This document shows, one piece after another, positions 2,757 to 47,694 of a DNA stretch of 47,694 bases. The number at the start of each line of letters is the position of its first letter. Position 1 is the stretch's first letter. A program made the translations under genes and the position numbers. The notes beneath the pieces were generated by a model. It searched no databases. It had not been told where the DNA came from and was given only the letters and a program-made list of their open reading frames with translations. Source of the stretch: a virus; the IMG/VR virus record IMGVR_UViG_3300030618_000030; one strand, written 5' to 3'.

Positions 2757-4376
2757 ATGCCCTACCCGTACGAACACGACTTTAAAAACCCCGATTACCC
2801 GCGTGTATTTCAGTGGCGCATCGATAAGTTGACCGCTATCCGCGCCGATCCGCAGTTAGCGGCGATGCTGCGCACGCACTACGCGGCGAACCCTATCGAC
2901 TTTATCGAAGACTGGGGAACTACGTTCGACCCACGTAACGTCGGTACGTCACAGCCAGCATTGCTACCGTTAATACTGTTCCCGCGGCAACGCGAGTTTC
3001 TTCAATGGGTGCTTGATCGGTGGAAAGCCGAAGAGTTCGCGCTATCGGACAAATCGCGAGATATGGGCCTATCTTGGATGATGGTGTCATTGTTTAGCGC
3101 ACTGGCGTTATTCAACGACGGTTTCACGGCCGGCTTCGGATCGCGTAAGGAAATCCTAGTTGATCGAGCGGGCGACCCGGATTGTCTGTTTTTCAAAATA
3201 CGCATGTTCTTATCGAATGTGCCCAAGGAATTCCGCGGCGATTGGAAAGTTGGCGGACGTGATTGCGATAAGCATATGTTGATCACCATTCCGCAAACAG
3301 GCGCAATTATCCGCGGCGAGGCGGGCGACAATATTGGTCGCGGTGGGCGCGCATCAATGTACTGTCGTGACGAAGCGGCATTTATCGAACGGCCGCATTT
3401 GAGCGACGCGGCACTATCGCAAAACACGCGCTGTTTGATCGATATCAGTTCGGTCAATGGTCTAGATAACCCATTTGCCGACAAGCGGCACTCGTGGCCC
3501 GCACATCGCGTATTTACGTTCTCGTGGCGCGACGACCCGCGCAAGGATGAAATTTGGTACGCGAAGCAAAAAGAGAATTTGAATCCAATCATCGTTGCAC
3601 AGGAAATTGACCTTGATTACAGCGCGTCTAAGTCTGGTGTGGTCATACCGTCCGCATGGGTCCAATCGGCCATTGGCGCCGCCCGTAAGCTCGGTATTAC
3701 CGTCACTGGTGCTAAAAAGTCCGCGCTCGATGTGGCCGACGAAGGTGTTGATTTGAATTCGTGGGGCGGTCGATACGGCATCGAGTTGCGTCACGTTGAT
3801 TCGTGGTCAGGCCAGGGTAAAACGATTTTTTGGACCACGGAGCAAACGTTTCTACGTTGCGACCAGTTCGGTTATGACAATTGCAAATACGATTCGGACG
3901 GTCTAGGCGTCGGCGTACGTGGTGACGCGGCCCAAATTAACAGCCGACCCGACCGTACCAATGCACAGCGTAAATTCGAGCCTTATAGGGGTTCCGGCGC
4001 CGTAGTGAACAAAGATAAACTCGTGATACGTGGTGATGACCGCGGCGTGGGGGCGCGCAAGAATGAGGATTTCTTTAAGAACCTCAAAGCGCAAGCGTGG
4101 TGGTCATTACGCGACCGATTCGAGCGTACGCATCGGGCCGTGGAAGACGGTGCCATATTCGACCCGGAAACGCTTATCAGCATTAGTGAAGACATACCGG
4201 GTGCGCAACGCAACAGGATTGCCGCGCAATTGTCGCAAGCGACGTACGACATTAACGATGCGGGCAAGATGATTATCGACAAGACCCCGGACGGTCAACG
4301 CTCACCAAACGACGCCGACATGATAGTGATCCTATACGCGCCGGAAGAAAAGAAATCATCGCTGTTTTCCCGTTGA
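2757..4376 (+). CDS. terL: terminase large subunit
   Basis: 539 aa. Has a KSRDMGLS-type ATPase loop typical of Terminase_6-like TerL, with acidic nuclease-half motifs. It lies upstream of the portal gene. Confidence 0.88.
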   Translation: MPYPYEHDFKNPDYPRVFQWRIDKLTAIRADPQLAAMLRTHYAANPIDFIEDWGTTFDPRNVGTSQPALLPLILFPRQREFLQWVLDRWKAEEFALSDKSRDMGLSWMMVSLFSALALFNDGFTAGFGSRKEILVDRAGDPDCLFFKIRMFLSNVPKEFRGDWKVGGRDCDKHMLITIPQTGAIIRGEAGDNIGRGGRASMYCRDEAAFIERPHLSDAALSQNTRCLIDISSVNGLDNPFADKRHSWPAHRVFTFSWRDDPRKDEIWYAKQKENLNPIIVAQEIDLDYSASKSGVVIPSAWVQSAIGAARKLGITVTGAKKSALDVADEGVDLNSWGGRYGIELRHVDSWSGQGKTIFWTTEQTFLRCDQFGYDNCKYDSDGLGVGVRGDAAQINSRPDRTNAQRKFEPYRGSGAVVNKDKLVIRGDDRGVGARKNEDFFKNLKAQAWWSLRDRFERTHRAVEDGAIFDPETLISISEDIPGAQRNRIAAQLSQATYDINDAGKMIIDKTPDGQRSPNDADMIVILYAPEEKKSSLFSR

Positions 4377-5443: not shown

Positions 5444-7066
5444 ATGCTCACATGGCTACGCAAACGGCTTGGACAAGAGCCGACCGAAAGTATCGAAAAC
5501 GAAAAAGTATTAAAAGGTTCGATGTTCTCGACGCATCGGACGGATTCATTGAGCCGCGGCAAACTGTCAAAAATGACGGTTCAATTGCATGAGGTATGGA
5601 CCAACTACACCCGCGCTTGGGCGCCCCGTCCGCAGTTGCCCGATGGCACGATGGACGATAGCGGCGACGGTTGGAACAGCATCAAGTCGGCCTATACGTT
5701 CGGTCAACCCAATATGTCGGACGCACTATTTCAGTGGTTCGGTACGCAATCATTTATTGGACACCAAGCCTGTGCGATTTTGTCGCAACATTGGATGATT
5801 GACAAAATATGCACAACCCCCGCACGCGATGCAATCCGACAAGGATACGAAATCGTCAATGAAGTGGGCGAAGAAAAACTCACAGAAGACGTGCAAGCGG
5901 CGTACGCCAAGTACGACAAGCTATTTAAAATCGATGCACATTTGCTCGAATTCGTACGCATGGGCCGAATCTTTGGCATCCGTGTTGCAATCCCGCGCAT
6001 CGAATCGCCCGACAAAGACTATTACGAAAAGCCGTTCAACCCGGACGGCGTACGCCGCGGCTCGTTTAAAGGTTGGACCCAAGTTGACCCGTATTGGATG
6101 GCGCCGATTTTGTCGGCCGAAGCATCGGCACAACCTGACGCGCCCGACTTTTACGAACCTACGTGGTGGTTGATCAATGGTAAAAAATATCATCGCTCAC
6201 ATCTGTGCATTTTCCGCACCGCGCAACCGCCTGACTTGCTGAAGCCGTCGTACCTATACAGCGGCGTGCCGATTCCACAGAAGATTATGGAACGCGTGTA
6301 TGCCGCGGAACGCACGGGCAACGAAGCGCCGTTGTTGGCACTGACGAAGCGCCTCTACACGTTGAAGCTCGACAGCATCGAAGACGCAATGGCGAATAAG
6401 CAAGACTTCGATGATTCAATGGCGTTCACCATTGATACACGCGATAACTACGGCGTGCGCATCATGGGCAAAGACGACGAAATGAGTCAGTTCGACACGT
6501 CGCTTGCCGATCTCGCGAACGTGATCGATACGCAATATGCGTTGGCGTGCGCGGCCGGCGACACGCCAGTAAATAAGATCATGGGTACTGCTGCGGCTGG
6601 CCTGGGTGGTAGTGCTGGCGACTATGACGAATCGAGTTATCACGAAACGCTTGAGTCTATCCAGACGCACGAATTGACGCCGTTTCTCGAACGTAATCAT
6701 TTGCTAGTGAAAATGTCGTACATAGTTCCTGAATTCGGTGCGGTCGACGGGGGCGCTAATACGACAGTATCGTGGAACCCGTTAGACTCGCCCACGGCGA
6801 AGGAATATAGCGAAATCAATTTGAACAATGCAAACGCTGATTTGGCGCTTGTCCAAACTGGCGCGGTCGATGACGTTGCCGTGAACGCTCGGTTGCGCAA
6901 TGACAAAAATAGCGGCTACTCGACGCTCAAGCCGTTGATTGTGTCAAACGAGCCGACCGACGAAGTGACACCTAACAACGCAGCGCCGCAGGGTGCGGGT
7001 CAAGAATCGCCGGAAAATAAGGCGTCGGCTAATTCGGCCGGTGTGAGTGCTCGCAGTGGCGCATAA
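5444..7066 (+). CDS. portal protein
   Basis: About 540 aa, lying between TerL and the Mu-F-like gene. The ATG at 5444 has GGGG 6 nt upstream; ATG 5432 is an alternative. Confidence 0.8.
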   Translation: MLTWLRKRLGQEPTESIENEKVLKGSMFSTHRTDSLSRGKLSKMTVQLHEVWTNYTRAWAPRPQLPDGTMDDSGDGWNSIKSAYTFGQPNMSDALFQWFGTQSFIGHQACAILSQHWMIDKICTTPARDAIRQGYEIVNEVGEEKLTEDVQAAYAKYDKLFKIDAHLLEFVRMGRIFGIRVAIPRIESPDKDYYEKPFNPDGVRRGSFKGWTQVDPYWMAPILSAEASAQPDAPDFYEPTWWLINGKKYHRSHLCIFRTAQPPDLLKPSYLYSGVPIPQKIMERVYAAERTGNEAPLLALTKRLYTLKLDSIEDAMANKQDFDDSMAFTIDTRDNYGVRIMGKDDEMSQFDTSLADLANVIDTQYALACAAGDTPVNKIMGTAAAGLGGSAGDYDESSYHETLESIQTHELTPFLERNHLLVKMSYIVPEFGAVDGGANTTVSWNPLDSPTAKEYSEINLNNANADLALVQTGAVDDVAVNARLRNDKNSGYSTLKPLIVSNEPTDEVTPNNAAPQGAGQESPENKASANSAGVSARSGA

Positions 7067-16563: not shown

Positions 16564-18645
16564 ATGAACATACTCGACACGTTCTATTTTATGTTCGAAG
16601 CCGATGCGACGAAGGTTGCCAAAGGCGCCGCGGCTGGTGAAACAGCCAGCATAAAACTGAAAAAAGTTATTGACGATACTGACGCATCTGCCGATGCGCT
16701 CGGTAAAAACTTTGTCAAGCTGGCAAAGACCGCGGCCGAAGCATTGGCAGGCGTGCTCGCATTGAGTGCGTTAAAAACGCTCGTCAATGATACGTCCGCG
16801 CATACCGCAGCGGTGGCGATGCAAGCGCGTGCGATGCAAATGAACGTCGAACAGATGAGCGCGTACCGTAATGCCGTTGTTGGCATGGGTGGCGACGCTG
16901 ATCAAGCCGCGGGCACGTTGAGTAATCTTCGGGATAAGTTCGTTGAAATGTCTCGATTCGGCGCAATGGTCGGGCCGGACGCGTTCATGTTTCGTCAGCT
17001 TGGATTGTCCGCGCAGCAAATGCGCGACAGCATCAAAGACCCAACTATTGCGTTGGGTGCGCTCGCTGAAAAGTTTCAGTCACTTAACGGCGTGCAACAA
17101 CAATACATCGGTAAAAAACTTGGTCTTGATCAAGGCACGATCATGTTGTTATCGCAGGGTCGTCGCGCATTTGAGGAAATGATCGAGAAGCAAAAAGAGC
17201 TAGGCGTCGTTACGCAAGCGCAGGCGCAGGCAGCAATGAAGTACAAGATCGCGCAGGCCGAATTAGGGCTAACGTTCGAAACCGTGAAGCGCGAAATCGT
17301 TACGGGATTGCTACCCGCGTTCACATGGGTTGTGCAAGGGATTGACAAAGTGTTGCAATGGTTCCGCGAACACAAAGGGTTCGCGCTCGGTCTATTTGCT
17401 ACGTTGGGCGCAGTGATTGCTACGGTGCTTGTGCCCCCGCTTATCGTCGCCGCAGCGGCGATGTGGTTACTGATTGCGCCGATCATTGCCGCTGCGGCAC
17501 CGTTCATTGCGTTGGGCGTGGTTATCGGTCTGATCATTGACGACATTGAGAAATTTCGCAGTGGTCAGAAGTCACTCATTGGCGAGATTTTGGAAAAGTG
17601 GCCGATGATTGGCGAGATTGCGCGGGCAGTGGCGCAAATCGTCAAAATGTCATTTGACCTAATCGTCAATTCGTTCAAGTGGTTTGGCGGCTATCTCAAA
17701 GGCGAGGCGTCGCAAGTATGGGAAGACTATAAAAAAGCCGCCGTGTCGATGTTCGACACGTTCGTTAAACAATTTCCAATATTGGGCAAAATCGCAAAAG
17801 TCTTTACCGATGGGTTCAAGTTCGAAATGGACGGCCTAATCACCATTTGGAAAACCCTAATCGATTTGATCGAGCAGTTGTTCAACAAGATCAAAGGCGC
17901 CCCGGCCGCGGTGCTAAATTGGATTGGGCATAAGTTATCAGCCGTGACGGGTGAGCATTACGACGATGTTGGAAGCGGTTCGCCGGGCACGGCTGGTTCG
18001 CCCGCAACCCTAGCCAATAGCGCGGACGGTAAAGCAATTGCCGCGAAGTTGATCGCGTCAGGCAAATGGACGCCCGAACAAGCCGCAGGTATTGCCGGTT
18101 CGTTCATGCAGGAAAGCACCGGCAAAGCCAACGCAAAGAATCCGACGAGCGGCGCATATGGCTTGGGTCAATGGCTAGGTTCACGGCGTGACGATTTTGA
18201 GAAGTACACCGGCAAGCCGTTAGAAGGGTCAAGCCTCGATGATCAGTTGGCATTTTTCAATTACGAGACGACGCACAAGGAGAAACATGCGGGCGATATG
18301 ATTCGGCAGGCCAAAACAGCCGCAGAAGCGGCCGACGCGCATTCGAAGTACTACGAGCGCCCCGGCGCCGACGAAGCGAACCTAGCGCGTCGTGAGCAAT
18401 ATGCGAACATGATCGCATCGGGTCAAACGCAAGTCGCAGGAACGAATACCCCGCTGGCGTCGCAATCGTCACAAAGTATCGCGGCGAGCACGTCGAACAA
18501 TCGCAGTGTGAGCGTACAAACTGGCGACACGATTATTCATACCGCAGCTACCGACGCGGCCGGCATTGCCGCAGCGCACGCGGACCTGTTGAAGCAACAT
18601 ATTAACGATGCGCTCGATGCGCACGATGACGGGGTATTGATATGA
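16564..18645 (+). CDS. tape measure protein with an embedded lysozyme-like (phage tail lysozyme) domain
   Basis: 693 aa, helical and Ala-rich, with a central hydrophobic stretch. The C-terminal third carries ...AGIAGSFMQESTGKANAKNPTSGAYGLGQWLGSRRDDF.... Confidence 0.85.
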   Translation: MNILDTFYFMFEADATKVAKGAAAGETASIKLKKVIDDTDASADALGKNFVKLAKTAAEALAGVLALSALKTLVNDTSAHTAAVAMQARAMQMNVEQMSAYRNAVVGMGGDADQAAGTLSNLRDKFVEMSRFGAMVGPDAFMFRQLGLSAQQMRDSIKDPTIALGALAEKFQSLNGVQQQYIGKKLGLDQGTIMLLSQGRRAFEEMIEKQKELGVVTQAQAQAAMKYKIAQAELGLTFETVKREIVTGLLPAFTWVVQGIDKVLQWFREHKGFALGLFATLGAVIATVLVPPLIVAAAAMWLLIAPIIAAAAPFIALGVVIGLIIDDIEKFRSGQKSLIGEILEKWPMIGEIARAVAQIVKMSFDLIVNSFKWFGGYLKGEASQVWEDYKKAAVSMFDTFVKQFPILGKIAKVFTDGFKFEMDGLITIWKTLIDLIEQLFNKIKGAPAAVLNWIGHKLSAVTGEHYDDVGSGSPGTAGSPATLANSADGKAIAAKLIASGKWTPEQAAGIAGSFMQESTGKANAKNPTSGAYGLGQWLGSRRDDFEKYTGKPLEGSSLDDQLAFFNYETTHKEKHAGDMIRQAKTAAEAADAHSKYYERPGADEANLARREQYANMIASGQTQVAGTNTPLASQSSQSIAASTSNNRSVSVQTGDTIIHTAATDAAGIAAAHADLLKQHINDALDAHDDGVLI

Positions 18646-40508: not shown

Positions 40509-43133
40509 ATGCAAGATATCAATACGCTGCGTGCTGCGCTGGCGGGGCCGCTTGCCCCATTGACCCAGTATCGGCAGTTTATGCTGTGGCGGCTTGAGCC
40601 GGATGTATCGGGCGGCAAGCCGCGTAAGATTCCCTATCGCATTGACGGCAGTATGGGTTCGAGCACGGACCCGACCAGTTGGGTAGACGCCGCAACCGCG
40701 CTTGATGTGGCGCAGCGTTCCAATATGGGCGTGGCGTTCGTATTGTCAGACGCGGACCCGTTCATCTTTATTGACGTTGACGGTTGTGTGGTCGACGGCA
40801 AGTGGGATACCGATGCGCTTGATACGTTCGGTCGCTTTCCAGGTACAGCATTCGAAGTGTCACAGTCTCACACCGGGTTTCATTTGTTCGTCGCGGGTAA
40901 TACACCGCCGGGATACACCGGCCGCAAGCGCGGTAAGTTCGAGTGTTACCGTACGTCGCGCTTTGTCGCATTGACCGGCATTGGCGCAACGGGACAACTT
41001 TTGAATTTCGGCGCAGGATTGGACGCCTGGATAGCTGACAAATTCCCCCTTGCTGTTAGTGACGGCGAGCTAGGCCCGCTTAAGTGGCACACCGCACCGA
41101 TACCCGAATGGGCCGGGCCGCACGATGACGCCGAACTGTTGCGCCAGTTCTTAGCCGAACCTGTGCGCGCCAATGCTGCGATGGCGTTCGCTAATCTTGT
41201 GCCGGGTCAAGTGCCTGACATGCCGGTGAGTAACGCAGACCTGTTCAATGCAACAGCCTCAGTGCTTGCAAGTGCATACCCATCCGATAAAGGTGATGCA
41301 TTCGATAAGAGCAACGCGGCGTTTGCGCTCGCGTGTCGGCTGGCGTATTGGACCGGTAAAGACTGCCCACGCATCGAGCGACTGATGGGGCTTGCAGCGT
41401 TTCGTCGTACCAAGGCCGATCAATATCACAGCAACGGCATTACATACATGCATTGGGACATTATGCGTGCGTGTGCGTTCACAACGAAGGTGCGCTACCA
41501 ACGCGCCGAAGCTGCCAACGCGGAAGTGGTTGCCAATGCGGCGCAAGCATACGACGCTTACTATGATCGAATAGCCGCGGCACCGGATATACATGCAGTG
41601 CGCGTAATTACCGGTGAGGTCGCAGTTGATTTACGTATTGATCCGACGTTGCGCGAGTTGCTCGCCGGGCACGTACAGGCCAGCTTGCTCACCAGTGGCA
41701 GCAAGCTCAAGATAGACGAGTGCCGCAAGTTGGTCGCGCAGCGCAGCGCACACCCCGCACCCGACCGACAAGCGATGCAGCGTCAAACGAATATCGCGTT
41801 AAATCTTGATGAGGACTTACCAACGCTGGCACCCGTGCTCACTACGGCGCAAATGCTAGATGAATATGTGTTCATTGCGGACGGCTCGAACGTTGCTAGT
41901 ATTTACGATGGCAAGTCTGCGTTCACCTTGCCCGACTGGCGCAACATGATGGCCGCAAGTCGTACCGTAATGCCCGACGGCGCCACTGTCGAACATACGG
42001 AAGCATGGCGCACGCATGCGGGTCGCAAGTCTGTAGCAACTCGAACATTCCATGCCGGTGAGAGCGTCATCACCCGTGATCCTAACGGACGCGTGGCGCT
42101 CAATCTGTGGCGCCCGGTCGCTCGTGGCACTGCGGCGACTGTAGATATCGGGCCATTCTTAGAACACGTTAATTATCTGTTCGGGTCTGACGCCGGGGCG
42201 TTCCTAGACTGGCTTGCTCACATCGAGCAATTTCCCGGCGTGTTGCCGCACTACGGGTTCCTTCACATAGCGGACCACTTTGGATGTGGGCGCAACTGGC
42301 TTGAATCCGTCATTGCTCGCTTGTGGCGTGGTTATGTCGCGCCCAGTGTGGATATGGATCAGCTAATTGGTGGCGGGTTCAATGGTGCGCTTGCTGGCCG
42401 CATTATTGCCGTGGTTGATGAGATACGGGCGGGCGCTCGCGAAGACGCGTACATGTTAGAGGGAAAGATACGCAATATGCTCACCGAAGAAACACGGTCG
42501 ATCAATCCGAAATATGGCCGGGCCTACATGGAACATAACGCGTGTCGCTGGCTGTTGTTCTCGAACCATAAGAACGCTATCCCGATGAATGCGAATGACC
42601 GCAGATGGTACGTGATCCATTTGGGGCTTAAGCCGCGTGAGGCGCATGTCTATAGCTATCTGTACGGGCTGCTCGAACAACCGGCGTTCATTGATTCGGT
42701 CGGTATATGGTTGCGCCAACGTGATCTAAGCCAGTACAACCCCGGCGCCCGGCCGCCTGAGACAACCGCGAAGCTACGGGCCATTGACGCAAGCAAGTCG
42801 GACTATCAACGGCTGGCGGCTAACGTCGTTAAATACTGGCCCGCGGACCTGATCACTACAAACGATCTCACAAGCATCATGTTTGAAGGTGACATGAGCG
42901 CGATGGGTAAGAAAATTAACGCAGCAATGAAACATGCGTTACAGGATTGCGGCATGCACTACGTGGACAAGCCATTATTCGATGCGAGCGGCGCTAGACA
43001 CCGAACATGGATCGTTCGGAACGTTGATTACTGGCTTGCCGATCTTAAATTACTGAGGACGGCGCCCGAATTTAACAAGTTGGTGGCGTTTAACAAAGGC
43101 ACCGGCAACCAAACTTTGACGGCCCTACTGTGA
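40509..43133 (+). CDS. bifunctional primase-polymerase (prim-pol) with PriCT-like region and SF3-type helicase/NTPase domain
   Basis: Prim-pol motifs FIFIDVDGC and SQSHTGFHLF. PriCT-like AFDKSNAAFALACRLAYWTGKD. C-terminal Walker B IIAVVDE and LFSNH. The Walker A position is atypical (HFGCGRNW). Confidence 0.8.
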   Translation: MQDINTLRAALAGPLAPLTQYRQFMLWRLEPDVSGGKPRKIPYRIDGSMGSSTDPTSWVDAATALDVAQRSNMGVAFVLSDADPFIFIDVDGCVVDGKWDTDALDTFGRFPGTAFEVSQSHTGFHLFVAGNTPPGYTGRKRGKFECYRTSRFVALTGIGATGQLLNFGAGLDAWIADKFPLAVSDGELGPLKWHTAPIPEWAGPHDDAELLRQFLAEPVRANAAMAFANLVPGQVPDMPVSNADLFNATASVLASAYPSDKGDAFDKSNAAFALACRLAYWTGKDCPRIERLMGLAAFRRTKADQYHSNGITYMHWDIMRACAFTTKVRYQRAEAANAEVVANAAQAYDAYYDRIAAAPDIHAVRVITGEVAVDLRIDPTLRELLAGHVQASLLTSGSKLKIDECRKLVAQRSAHPAPDRQAMQRQTNIALNLDEDLPTLAPVLTTAQMLDEYVFIADGSNVASIYDGKSAFTLPDWRNMMAASRTVMPDGATVEHTEAWRTHAGRKSVATRTFHAGESVITRDPNGRVALNLWRPVARGTAATVDIGPFLEHVNYLFGSDAGAFLDWLAHIEQFPGVLPHYGFLHIADHFGCGRNWLESVIARLWRGYVAPSVDMDQLIGGGFNGALAGRIIAVVDEIRAGAREDAYMLEGKIRNMLTEETRSINPKYGRAYMEHNACRWLLFSNHKNAIPMNANDRRWYVIHLGLKPREAHVYSYLYGLLEQPAFIDSVGIWLRQRDLSQYNPGARPPETTAKLRAIDASKSDYQRLAANVVKYWPADLITTNDLTSIMFEGDMSAMGKKINAAMKHALQDCGMHYVDKPLFDASGARHRTWIVRNVDYWLADLKLLRTAPEFNKLVAFNKGTGNQTLTALL

Positions 43134-43141
43134 ATTATGGA

Positions 43142-43270
43142 GAACAGAGAACAGTCGGGAACAGTCTACAGAAAAAGAGCTGTTCAAAAGTAATAAGTAT
43201 TAACCCTAATAGGTATATAGGTGGTGGCTATGGAGTTTTTGCCTAGACTGTTCCCGACTGTTCTCTGTTC
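43142..43270. repeat. Perfect 27-bp inverted repeat (43142-43168 / 43244-43270) built of GAACAG iterons, flanking an AT-rich 75-bp core. Candidate ori or pac region.
   Basis: The left arm gaacagagaacagtcgggaacagtcta is the reverse complement of the right arm. GAACAG occurs at 43142, 43149 and 43159; CTGTTC occurs at 43180, 43248, 43258 and 43265. Confidence 0.9.
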
Positions 43271-43290
43271 CCGGCAATTAAAGGCGTGAT

Positions 43291-44100
43291 ATGAGTACGG
43301 ATAATTTAACGCCAAAGCAACAAGCGTTTATTTTGGCTCGTGTAGAACTTGGGAACGATACGGAAGCATATAAGCGTGCGTATGACTGCGCACGTATGAA
43401 AGAAACAACGATATCTAGGAATGCGCATGCGTTAGTGCGGTTGCCAAAAGTGGCAGCTAAATTGCAGCAAATCGAAGAACGATCCGAACGCGCCGCCATC
43501 CTAGACCGTGCCGGCGTGATCAATTTAATTACCGAAATTGCAACGGCCGACGCGACCGCATTTAGCGAATTGCAGATACGGAACTGCCGGCACTGTTGGG
43601 GCGTGGGACATCGGTTCCAATGGGCCAATGAAACGGAGTTCGCCTTTCGGTGCGCCGAAGTGATGGACCGCAACGCAAAGGCGGTCCGTAAGTGGCAGGC
43701 GGGCAAATGCAAGCCCCGCGACGAACCCGTTCCGGAAGAGTTGCCGACTGATGAGGGTGGCTATGGGTTCGTCGTCACACACGAGCCGAACGCCGAATGC
43801 CCCTCATGTCTAGGTGAAGGGTTAGAGGTCGTACGGTTCAAAGACACACGCAAACTCAAAGGCGCGTCGAAACGTTTGTTTGCCGGTATCAAGACCGGCC
43901 CGCGTGGCATCGAGATAAAGACGCGTAGTCAGGAACATGCGCTAGGCTTGCTTGCCAAGATTCACGGTATTGACAATGATCCGCCACCGGCCGCACCAGG
44001 GGGCACCACGTTTAACAACTACGGGCAGGCTGTTGTTATGATTCCAACTGATCCGCTCGAAGCAGCGCGGGCCTATCAAGAATTAATGAAGGGGGGTTAG
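43291..44100 (+). CDS. terS: terminase small subunit (Terminase_2-like N-terminus) with CxxC...CxxC insert
   Basis: The N-terminus LTPKQQAFILARVELGNDTEAYKRAY...AHALVRLPKVAAKLQQIEERSE is typical of TerS. It is followed by CRHCWG...CPSCLG. Confidence 0.75.
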   Translation: MSTDNLTPKQQAFILARVELGNDTEAYKRAYDCARMKETTISRNAHALVRLPKVAAKLQQIEERSERAAILDRAGVINLITEIATADATAFSELQIRNCRHCWGVGHRFQWANETEFAFRCAEVMDRNAKAVRKWQAGKCKPRDEPVPEELPTDEGGYGFVVTHEPNAECPSCLGEGLEVVRFKDTRKLKGASKRLFAGIKTGPRGIEIKTRSQEHALGLLAKIHGIDNDPPPAAPGGTTFNNYGQAVVMIPTDPLEAARAYQELMKGG

Positions 44101-47282: not shown

Positions 47283-47620
47283 TCGATTACGAAGAGTTCA
47301 AAGAGCAACGCGACGACTTGCGCCGACAGTTGCGCGAATGGATCGCGGCGAAGTCCCTGGATAGGTCGGATCGTGGTGCGGCTGTACGGGCAGCACATCG
47401 TAAATATTTATTGGCACGTCAGGCAATTAACGGACGTGCCGGACAAGCACGGGATACTTGGCAAAGTTGTTACTCTGTGGAACGTTATGGGCAAGCGTCA
47501 GAGCAACGCCGGATTCGATATTTAACAAAAGCTCAGTTACCTGGATTAATTACAGCATTGACAAGCCCGCGCAAGATTGATCAGTTGATAGGCAACGGAG
47601 GTTGGGATGAAACTCGATGA
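47279..47620 (+). CDS. hypothetical early protein (113 aa); its 3' end lies in the terminal repeat
   Basis: ATGA overlap with the upstream stop. The last 53 nt are duplicated at 1-53. Confidence 0.6.
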   Translation: MIDYEEFKEQRDDLRRQLREWIAAKSLDRSDRGAAVRAAHRKYLLARQAINGRAGQARDTWQSCYSVERYGQASEQRRIRYLTKAQLPGLITALTSPRKIDQLIGNGGWDETR

Positions 47621-47694
47621 ATTGATCCGTTATGACGTAGCACCCGGCACGCTTAGCGAACCGACGCCTAACGGTGCATTCGTCGCGTATGCGC
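47568..47694. repeat. Terminal direct repeat copy 2 (identical to 1-127)
   Basis: Read directly, 127/127 identity. Confidence 0.95.

Follow-up and report, generated by a model that had tools for sequence, protein, structure and literature searches.

The replication origins of the Staphylococcus aureus pathogenicity islands (SaPI) lie just downstream of rep and contain 6 to 12 penta- or hexanucleotide iterons, half of them on each side of an AT-rich centre and in opposite orientation (PMC9371898, PMC7581432). These iterons, the sequence of which is specific to each element (PMC9371898), are recognized through a C-terminal winged helix by a self-loading superfamily 3 (SF3) helicase, which probably loads as 2 hexamers (PMC9371898, PMC7581432). 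In plasmid pRN1, the origin is a stem-loop of approximately 100 nt located directly 3' of a gene that combines an archaeo-eukaryotic primase (AEP), an SF3-type helicase and a winged-helix domain, and a model of 2 hexamers, melting and self-priming has been proposed for it; similar stem-loops have been noted in Bordetella phages (PMC4234260). In the annotated record of phage P4, the crr site lies directly downstream of the alpha gene and carries octamers (GGTGAACA/TGTTCACC) that surround A/T-rich DNA and occur in both orientations. Here, we analyzed an inverted-iteron element in the DNA of an uncultured phage (IMG/VR record IMGVR_UViG_3300030618_000030), the whole 47,694-nt stretch of which is called the window throughout. 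This element, 129 bp in length (43142-43270), is built of GAACAG units and lies between a primase-helicase gene and terS, the gene for the small terminase subunit (TerS). Judging from sequence comparisons, we consider it probable (roughly 75%) that the element is the replication origin of the phage, of the type known from SaPI, P4 crr and pRN1, and that it serves a self-loading SF3 initiator helicase.

The 2 arms of the element, at 43142-43168 (GAACAGAGAACAGTCGGGAACAGTCTA) on the left and 43244-43270 on the right, are exact reverse complements of each other, and the repeat cannot be extended by 1 base on either side, which reproduces the coordinates of the 27-bp perfect repeat, with 3 GAACAG units per arm, reported in the original prediction. 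No other perfect inverted repeat of the window comes near this length, the next longest being palindromes of 16 nt. GAACAG units start at 43142, 43149 and 43159 in the left arm (spacing of 7 and 10 nt) and CTGTTC units at 43248, 43258 and 43265 in the right arm, and the arms enclose a core of 75 bp (43169-43243). The flanking genes are indeed those predicted: upstream, an 874-aa primase-polymerase (prim-pol)/helicase (40509-43133, plus strand), and downstream, a 269-aa TerS of the Terminase_2 family with a 4-cysteine insertion (43291-44100, plus strand). Within the 157-bp gap between them, the left arm begins 8 nt past the stop codon of the primase-helicase gene and the right arm stops 20 nt ahead of the ATG of terS. 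GAACAG and CTGTTC are not enriched in the genome (15 and 12 copies versus 13 and 10 expected), and their cluster at the element is the top 6-mer cluster of the genome, barring an unrelated 9-bp tandem array; no second, separate GAACAG cluster occurs in the genome. A layout detector that requires at least 2 tandem 6-mers, a spacer of 30 to 130 bp and at least 2 inverted copies returned a single match in the window, this element.

The AT-rich centre described in the original prediction stood out as well, since the segment 43160-43220 is the least stable duplex of the whole genome, ranking first when stability was computed over 30, 40 or 60 bp. The core contains a conserved motif at 43172-43191 (AAAAAGAGCTGTTCAAAAGT), an AT-rich putative unwinding element at approximately 43180-43220, a second conserved motif at 43211-43219 (AGGTATATA), and 2 GTGG motifs on the top strand at 43221-43227. 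A CTGTTC at 43180, earlier counted as a seventh iteron copy, is present but forms part of the core motif GCT[AG]T..CAAAAGT; because this motif is unchanged in relatives with other arm units, that CTGTTC is probably not an iteron. The statement that no open reading frame (ORF) explains the repeat holds only in part, because a 19-codon ORF (43230-43289) and a 43-aa ORF on the minus strand overlap it, although visual comparison with the relatives showed no conservation of the encoded peptides. A leader-peptide role for the ORF at 43230-43289 was rejected because neither the peptides nor the Shine-Dalgarno sequences are conserved by the same visual inspection. With 6 hexamer units, arranged 3 + 3 in inverted orientation around an AT-rich centre and placed directly downstream of an SF3 helicase ORF, the element has the composition of a SaPI-type origin and, at the sequence level, fits the class of SaPI, pRN1 and P4 crr origins. 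Positions 1-127 of the window recur exactly at 47568-47694, an assembly overlap (k = 127); hence, the ends of the window are not physical termini, and the genome closes into a circle of 47,567 bp.

The original prediction had proposed examining whether the iterons are conserved. Close relatives comprised 9 distinct IMG/VR and metagenome contigs of 45 to 48 kb, with identities of 58% to 69% in the primase and 48% to 57% in TerS; a metagenome scan contributed only 3 further full-length loci of this closeness, which include the L002 contig. At the DNA level, blastn against GenBank phages gave no match, and the exact arm pattern had no match in viral contigs. An inverted repeat was found at the orthologous position in all 9 relatives, with arm units that depend on the lineage (GAACAG, AGAACA(C), GGAACG, AGGACA, ACTCAG, or TCTCA(G)) and are the same within one phage. 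Every phage has 3 units per arm, with approximately 17 nt from the first to the third, and in one relative the third unit is GTACACCC in both arms. Alignment of the left arm with the reverse complement of the right arm over 32 positions gave 21 to 28 matches across the 10 phages (the window and its 9 relatives). Only the window and L002 have perfect arms; in the other 8, the units themselves match, and the mismatches are found past unit 3 and in the 3 to 4 nt that separate it from unit 2. The units are therefore better conserved than continuous RNA or DNA pairing, a pattern which in these alignments points to units recognized by a protein and not to selection for a stem. Independently of the arm units, the relatives also share core sequences, namely AAAAAGAGCT..CAAAAGT, a pair of direct repeats at a distance of approximately 11 bp, AGGTATATA, and TATGG.

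With a plausible reader on either side of the element, the deciding question is which of the 2 genes it travels with. A scan of bacterial genomes identified 51 loci with homologues of the helicase and C-terminal domain (residues approximately 420-842, 37% to 51% identity), 45 of which could be analyzed. The inverted-iteron layout starts between -40 and +300 bp from the stop codon of the homologue in 23 of these 45 loci, versus 3 matches in the remaining 302 kb. The genomic elements have mostly 3 + 3 units and spacers of 53 to 80 bp, the arms of several are perfectly symmetric, and the units of 2 of them (L224 and L218) are of the GGAACA and AGAACA type, respectively. None of the 23 has a TerS of the window's type within approximately 2.9 kb downstream, and the genes downstream of 10 sampled elements included an integrase and no terminase. 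In a Hyphomicrobiaceae genome (L247, 4332-5981), the helicase homologue is followed by an inverted-iteron element and then a tyrosine integrase, an arrangement that mirrors alpha, crr, att, and int of P4; many of the 51 loci may be P4-like integrative elements.

More distant phage homologues of the primase-helicase (approximately 25% to 40% identity; L105, L118, L123, L130, L147, and L151) are also followed by the layout, which starts at most approximately 260 bp past the stop codon. The gene after the element is nucleoside deoxyribosyltransferase-like in L118 and L130, encodes a product without PHROG match in L105, and encodes a TerS of a different, Sf6-type family in L151. In L147, a helix-turn-helix (HTH) gene separates the element from terS and a separate terminator lies ahead of the iterons, while in L089 another ORF lies between the element and terS and the upstream gene is a different fusion of AEP, PriCT, D5_N, and SF3 domains. 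The layout adjoins 3 different TerS families. For the reverse comparison, we used 30 distinct loci with a homologous TerS and no primase homologue detected upstream, and 26 of them lack the layout. The exceptions are L089, with its primase-helicase directly upstream, L046 and L059, which start at a contig end, and the family of L034, L036, and L037, in which a compact array with a spacer of only approximately 30 bp is found inside terS. Altogether, these comparisons of gene neighbourhoods show a linkage of the element to the helicase family rather than to terS. Because the layout follows helicase homologues that have no adjacent terS, they favour the reading as an iteron origin next to an initiator-like primase-helicase, which the original prediction had put first, and weaken the packaging site that it had named as the alternative.

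The proposed initiator consists of an AEP prim-pol domain, an NrS-1-type helix bundle (residues 268-328), an SF3 helicase domain (DUF5906, approximately residues 560-790), and a C-terminal domain (residues 744-874; 42738-43130, plus strand) that ends in a conserved tail. It matches a PHROG DNA primase family at 8e-65 and the Pfam families DUF5906 and NrS1-1_pol-like_HBD. Among PDB structures, NrS-1 N300 and CTR were matched, the CTR helicase (6k9c) at 5e-13, and the AEP domain matched PriRep5 of SaPI5 (7OLA) at 2e-32 in a profile search. By these matches, the protein is related to NrS-1 polymerase and to SaPI5 PriRep5. Its replication module also carries a separate helicase and a Gp2.5-like single-stranded DNA-binding protein (SSB). 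An AlphaFold2 model of the last 131 residues (mean predicted local distance difference test score of 85) has the order H-b-H-H-b-b, which is a winged-helix topology, and nearly all structures retrieved with this model by Foldseek were winged-helix DNA binders (PadR, TubR, NadQ-DNA, RTP-DNA, and Fox domains). Over approximately 37 loci, the putative recognition helix of this domain broadly co-varies with the unit type, with exceptions and confounded by phylogeny: helix HRRTLEQ occurs with G[GT][TA][AT]ACGC units, xRHA[LM]D with [AG]GAAC[AG] units, and divergent helices with unrelated units. Inside the close clade, co-variation of the units with either helix 3 of TerS or the primase C-terminal helix was discarded because it was not clean and was confounded by phylogeny. 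Since neither a TerS of this type was found in the genomic loci nor a terminase among the sampled downstream genes, the winged-helix-like C-terminal domain predicted for the helicase itself is the economical candidate for the reader of the arms. The extreme C-terminal tail (43095-43130, approximately the last 12 residues) reads GTGxQTLxALL in subclade A and G(F/Y)xTL(M/Q)xLL in subclade B and may be a short partner-binding motif, for instance for the sliding clamp.

Compared with the described systems, the locus resembles the SaPI origins in the position right after the initiator ORF, in the opposed iterons around an AT-rich centre, in unit sequences that differ from element to element, and in an SF3 initiator, fused to an AEP domain in SaPI5, with a C-terminal domain that in the window is a putative DNA binder. 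It differs from them in belonging to an uncultured phage of approximately 47.6 kb and not to a satellite of a Gram-positive host (S. aureus), in arms that form an exact 27-bp inverted repeat, and in the additional conserved motifs of the core; the helicase and C-terminal parts of the window protein gave no sequence-level match to PriRep5. With pRN1, it shares the domain order AEP prim-pol, helix bundle, SF3 helicase, and C-terminal winged helix, the last being the least certain in the window, and a 129-nt element with a 27-bp stem directly 3' of the replication gene. However, the pRN1 origin is described as iteron-less and requires an intact stem, whereas the window arms are iterated hexamers and the relatives keep the units over the pairing. 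As for P4, the resemblance to its ori and crr sites pointed out in the original prediction applies to the site and not to the protein. The crr octamers, placed as described above, share a GAACA core with the window units, but alpha has a Toprim-type primase and its best BLASTP match to the 874-aa protein (E = 0.055, not significant) covers only a short helicase motif. Because alpha is not detectably homologous, P4 is an analogue and not a relative, and PriRep5, NrS-1 polymerase, and ORF904 of pRN1 are closer. P4 also needs 2 separated sites, ori and crr, whereas the window has a single iteron cluster. Such an origin design was known before from the SaPI islands, P4, and pRN1, and the locus does not represent a new kind of system.

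The phage NrS-1, which infects Campylobacterota, encodes a homologous prim-pol and SF3 protein and, as the window does, a separate helicase and an SSB (PMC7102993). Its gene order is also primase, iteron field, and terS. The stretch between primase and terS, annotated as NRS1_29 (ORF29; L013 6128-6529, AB746912 approximately 17055-17456), contains GGTTACACTTT/AAAGTGTAACC iterons in both orientations and an AT-rich stretch. These iterons are 11-mers, present in approximately 11 copies over approximately 320 bp and nowhere else in the 9.7-kb locus, and they differ from the intergenic hexamers of the window in length and in lying under an ORF annotation. Inside the field, on the minus strand (L013 6271), is also the primase recognition sequence TTTGGTTA known from the literature. 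In the literature, 8-nt primase recognition sites have been proposed as the NrS-1 origin, and the iteron field is not described there (PMC7102993). We consider the iteron field a likely origin of NrS-1, and the NRS1_29 ORF may be spurious.

For the window, we infer the following course of initiation. The winged-helix-like C-terminal domains of the 874-aa protein would bind the 3 hexamer units of each arm and, because the arms are inverted, 2 hexamers would assemble face to face across the 75-bp core. The core, the DNA of the genome that melts most easily, would then open, possibly helped by extrusion of the arms as a hairpin or cruciform, as at the pRN1 origin, and the prim-pol domain would begin DNA synthesis on the exposed strands, with the GTGG motifs of the core as candidate start signals. 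The NrS-1 prim-pol uses 5'-TTTGGTTA-3' as an initiation site, but 5'-GTG(G/A)-3' serves it more efficiently (PMC8718748). In 8 of the 10 close-clade cores, there are at least 2 GTGG motifs on the top strand and none on the bottom strand, 2 of them spaced 11 nt apart inside AGTGGT(T)AT repeats, where chance would give approximately 0.6 GTG[GA] per 80-nt core on the top strand. The window core has GGTGGTGG, and that of L002 has none. This distribution suggests that the core may also supply priming signals.

Several observations weigh against the origin reading. In the structural comparison of the C-terminal domain, the best Foldseek E value was 0.12 and no match was significant, which leaves the winged-helix assignment short of significance. 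Helix AAMKHAL is identical in the window, L002, and L003 despite their differing units, and L227 has the units of L015 but a different helix. The GC skew of the window tracks gene orientation only and shows no origin signature. In addition, the element always heads the packaging operon in the window's clade; in BcepB1A and L108, the element abuts terS and is separated from the primase-helicase by 1 or 2 genes; and prophage-type TerS homologues have lineage-specific 7-mer arrays in the 5' part of their terS, found by k-mer scan in coding sequence and without a long AT-rich spacer, so that the recognition of short repeats may be a property of TerS in this family as well.

The last 2 points also speak for a packaging (pac) site, in which TerS oligomers would bind the hexamer triplets of both arms and the large terminase subunit would make its first cut in the core just upstream of terS. 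P1 (pac hexamers) and SPP1 (pacL, pacC, and pacR) likewise have short repeats that flank a central region beside or inside terS. The distance from the right arm to terS is short, L046 and L059 have iterons of both orientations a short way upstream of terS, helix 3 of the N-terminal HTH of TerS varies among phages, and the circular closure of the contig is compatible with headful packaging. A related metagenomic contig (L020) ends at its position 1 inside the core, between GAGGT and ATATTAGGTATGG, as a pac cut would have it; the end could be an assembly break or a physical end, which a single case cannot distinguish. Nevertheless, the layout is identical after the homologous helicase genes of the 23 genomic loci and several phage contigs, with no terS adjacent, and it differs from the P1 and SPP1 sites in tracking the helicase gene and not the TerS family, as it occurs next to 3 such families, is missing from most TerS-side loci, and does not travel with TerS when the replication gene changes. 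Moreover, phages that share AGAACA units differ in the residues of TerS helix 3. We therefore regard a pac site as unlikely, though it is the main rival of the origin reading.

The TerS proteins themselves showed 2 further features. The insertion in the window TerS (43585-43812, residues approximately 99-173) has 4 invariant cysteines (CxxC ... CPxC) that are conserved from the window clade to BcepB1A, a pattern suggestive of a zinc-binding module. Prophage-type TerS homologues have an N-terminal HTH extension of approximately 100 aa. The 7-mers inside their terS genes (TGCGCAA, TACGCAA, GGTTCGC, or CCGACC) occur in 4 to 8 copies, some of them inverted as 2 + 2 or 3 + 3 (L039 4347-4500, L042 4250-4375, L026 4338-4398, and L034 4315-4386), and these arrays are likely candidates for pac sites.

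A combination of both functions is conceivable because the order primase-helicase, iteron element, and terS recurs from NrS-1 to Burkholderia-type phages and beside 3 TerS families, a recurrence that may be more than chance in the arrangement of modules. In that case, a single nucleoprotein site would be both the origin and the entry point for packaging or late transcription, and firing of the origin would license terS expression or pac recognition. We consider such a dual role quite unlikely.

The position between the replication and packaging modules would also suit an element acting in transcription or as RNA at the early/late boundary, either as an operator with a late promoter, to which a symmetric regulator would bind, or as a hairpin terminator, an RNase III site, or a translational control of terS. 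The element folds with the 27-bp stem that the original prediction had pointed out (RNA, -66.5 kcal/mol, z = -6.7; DNA, z = -9.5), and the conserved core motifs that are not iterons, AGGTATATA and TATGG, could be parts of a promoter. The stem is formally there, but the spacer mismatches in 8 of the 10 phages mean that its continuous pairing is not kept, and the Shine-Dalgarno sequence of terS lies outside it. Scans for sigma-70-like promoters and intrinsic terminators and a search against Rfam returned nothing. A T3/T7-like phage promoter at TTAACCCTAATAGG was rejected because the sequence is present in a single copy. The context is not consistently that of an early/late boundary either: in L118 and L130, the element lies between 2 early-type genes, the genomic loci have unrelated neighbouring genes, and a separate terminator precedes the iterons in L147 as well as in P4. 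This explanation is accordingly very unlikely. Finally, a miniature inverted-repeat mobile element or selfish insertion, which perfect 27-bp terminal inverted repeats around a short non-coding segment could bring to mind, was rejected as having next to no probability, because the element is single copy in the genome, its arm sequence has no exact copy in viral contigs, every relative has it at the orthologous position, where the arms have diverged and the core has been conserved, and it has no target-site duplication.

As a replication origin, the element would be a candidate start site of replication for uncultured soil phages of a little-known clade, which is related to the Burkholderia phage BcepB1A, with which the window shares its gene order, a TerS that is 35% identical, and a primase-helicase that is 26% identical. 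The main added value of the analysis is a layout rule for the whole family, together with the unrecognized iteron field of NrS-1. The rule (2 to 4 tandem units of 6 to 9 bp, an AT-rich spacer of 50 to 80 bp, and inverted units, at most approximately 300 bp past the stop codon) finds candidate origins for initiators of the prim-pol/SF3 or SF3-only type in phages and integrated elements of Proteobacteria. NrS-1 is the biochemical model for self-priming prim-pols, and its iteron field had so far been annotated as a gene. The natural variants of the units, each paired with a diverged C-terminal domain, could be used to study the specificity of initiators for their origins.

Some other repeat-rich regions were observed along the way. 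The 46-aa "gp46" annotated in BcepB1A (AY616033; L011 4700-5003) falls within 300 bp of repeat-rich DNA upstream of terS, where GTACCA units have spacings of 7 and 10 nt, the same as in the window; the gp46 ORF probably does not correspond to a gene. L103 (5600-6250) combines, downstream of a distant primase-helicase, a perfect DnaA box (TTATCCACA), an inverted repeat of 49 bp that encloses an AT-rich stretch, and 4 direct repeats of AATGTTCT, followed by an HNH/TerS-like gene. L154 carries 7 tandem copies of a 21-bp unit (ACACCCGACAGGT...) at 6325-6470, approximately 450 bp downstream of a distant primase-helicase gene, and this array may be a plasmid-like variant of the origin with direct iterons. 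In the window itself, the 9-bp tandem array (ACTGCTCGN, 2091-2368) comprises approximately 31 copies with 86% matches. Read in the plus-strand frame of the ORF at 1982-2701, the array specifies repeated cysteine-rich tripeptides, (CS[YDRN])n, and it sits approximately 390 bp upstream of a weakly supported candidate for the large terminase gene (2757-4376).

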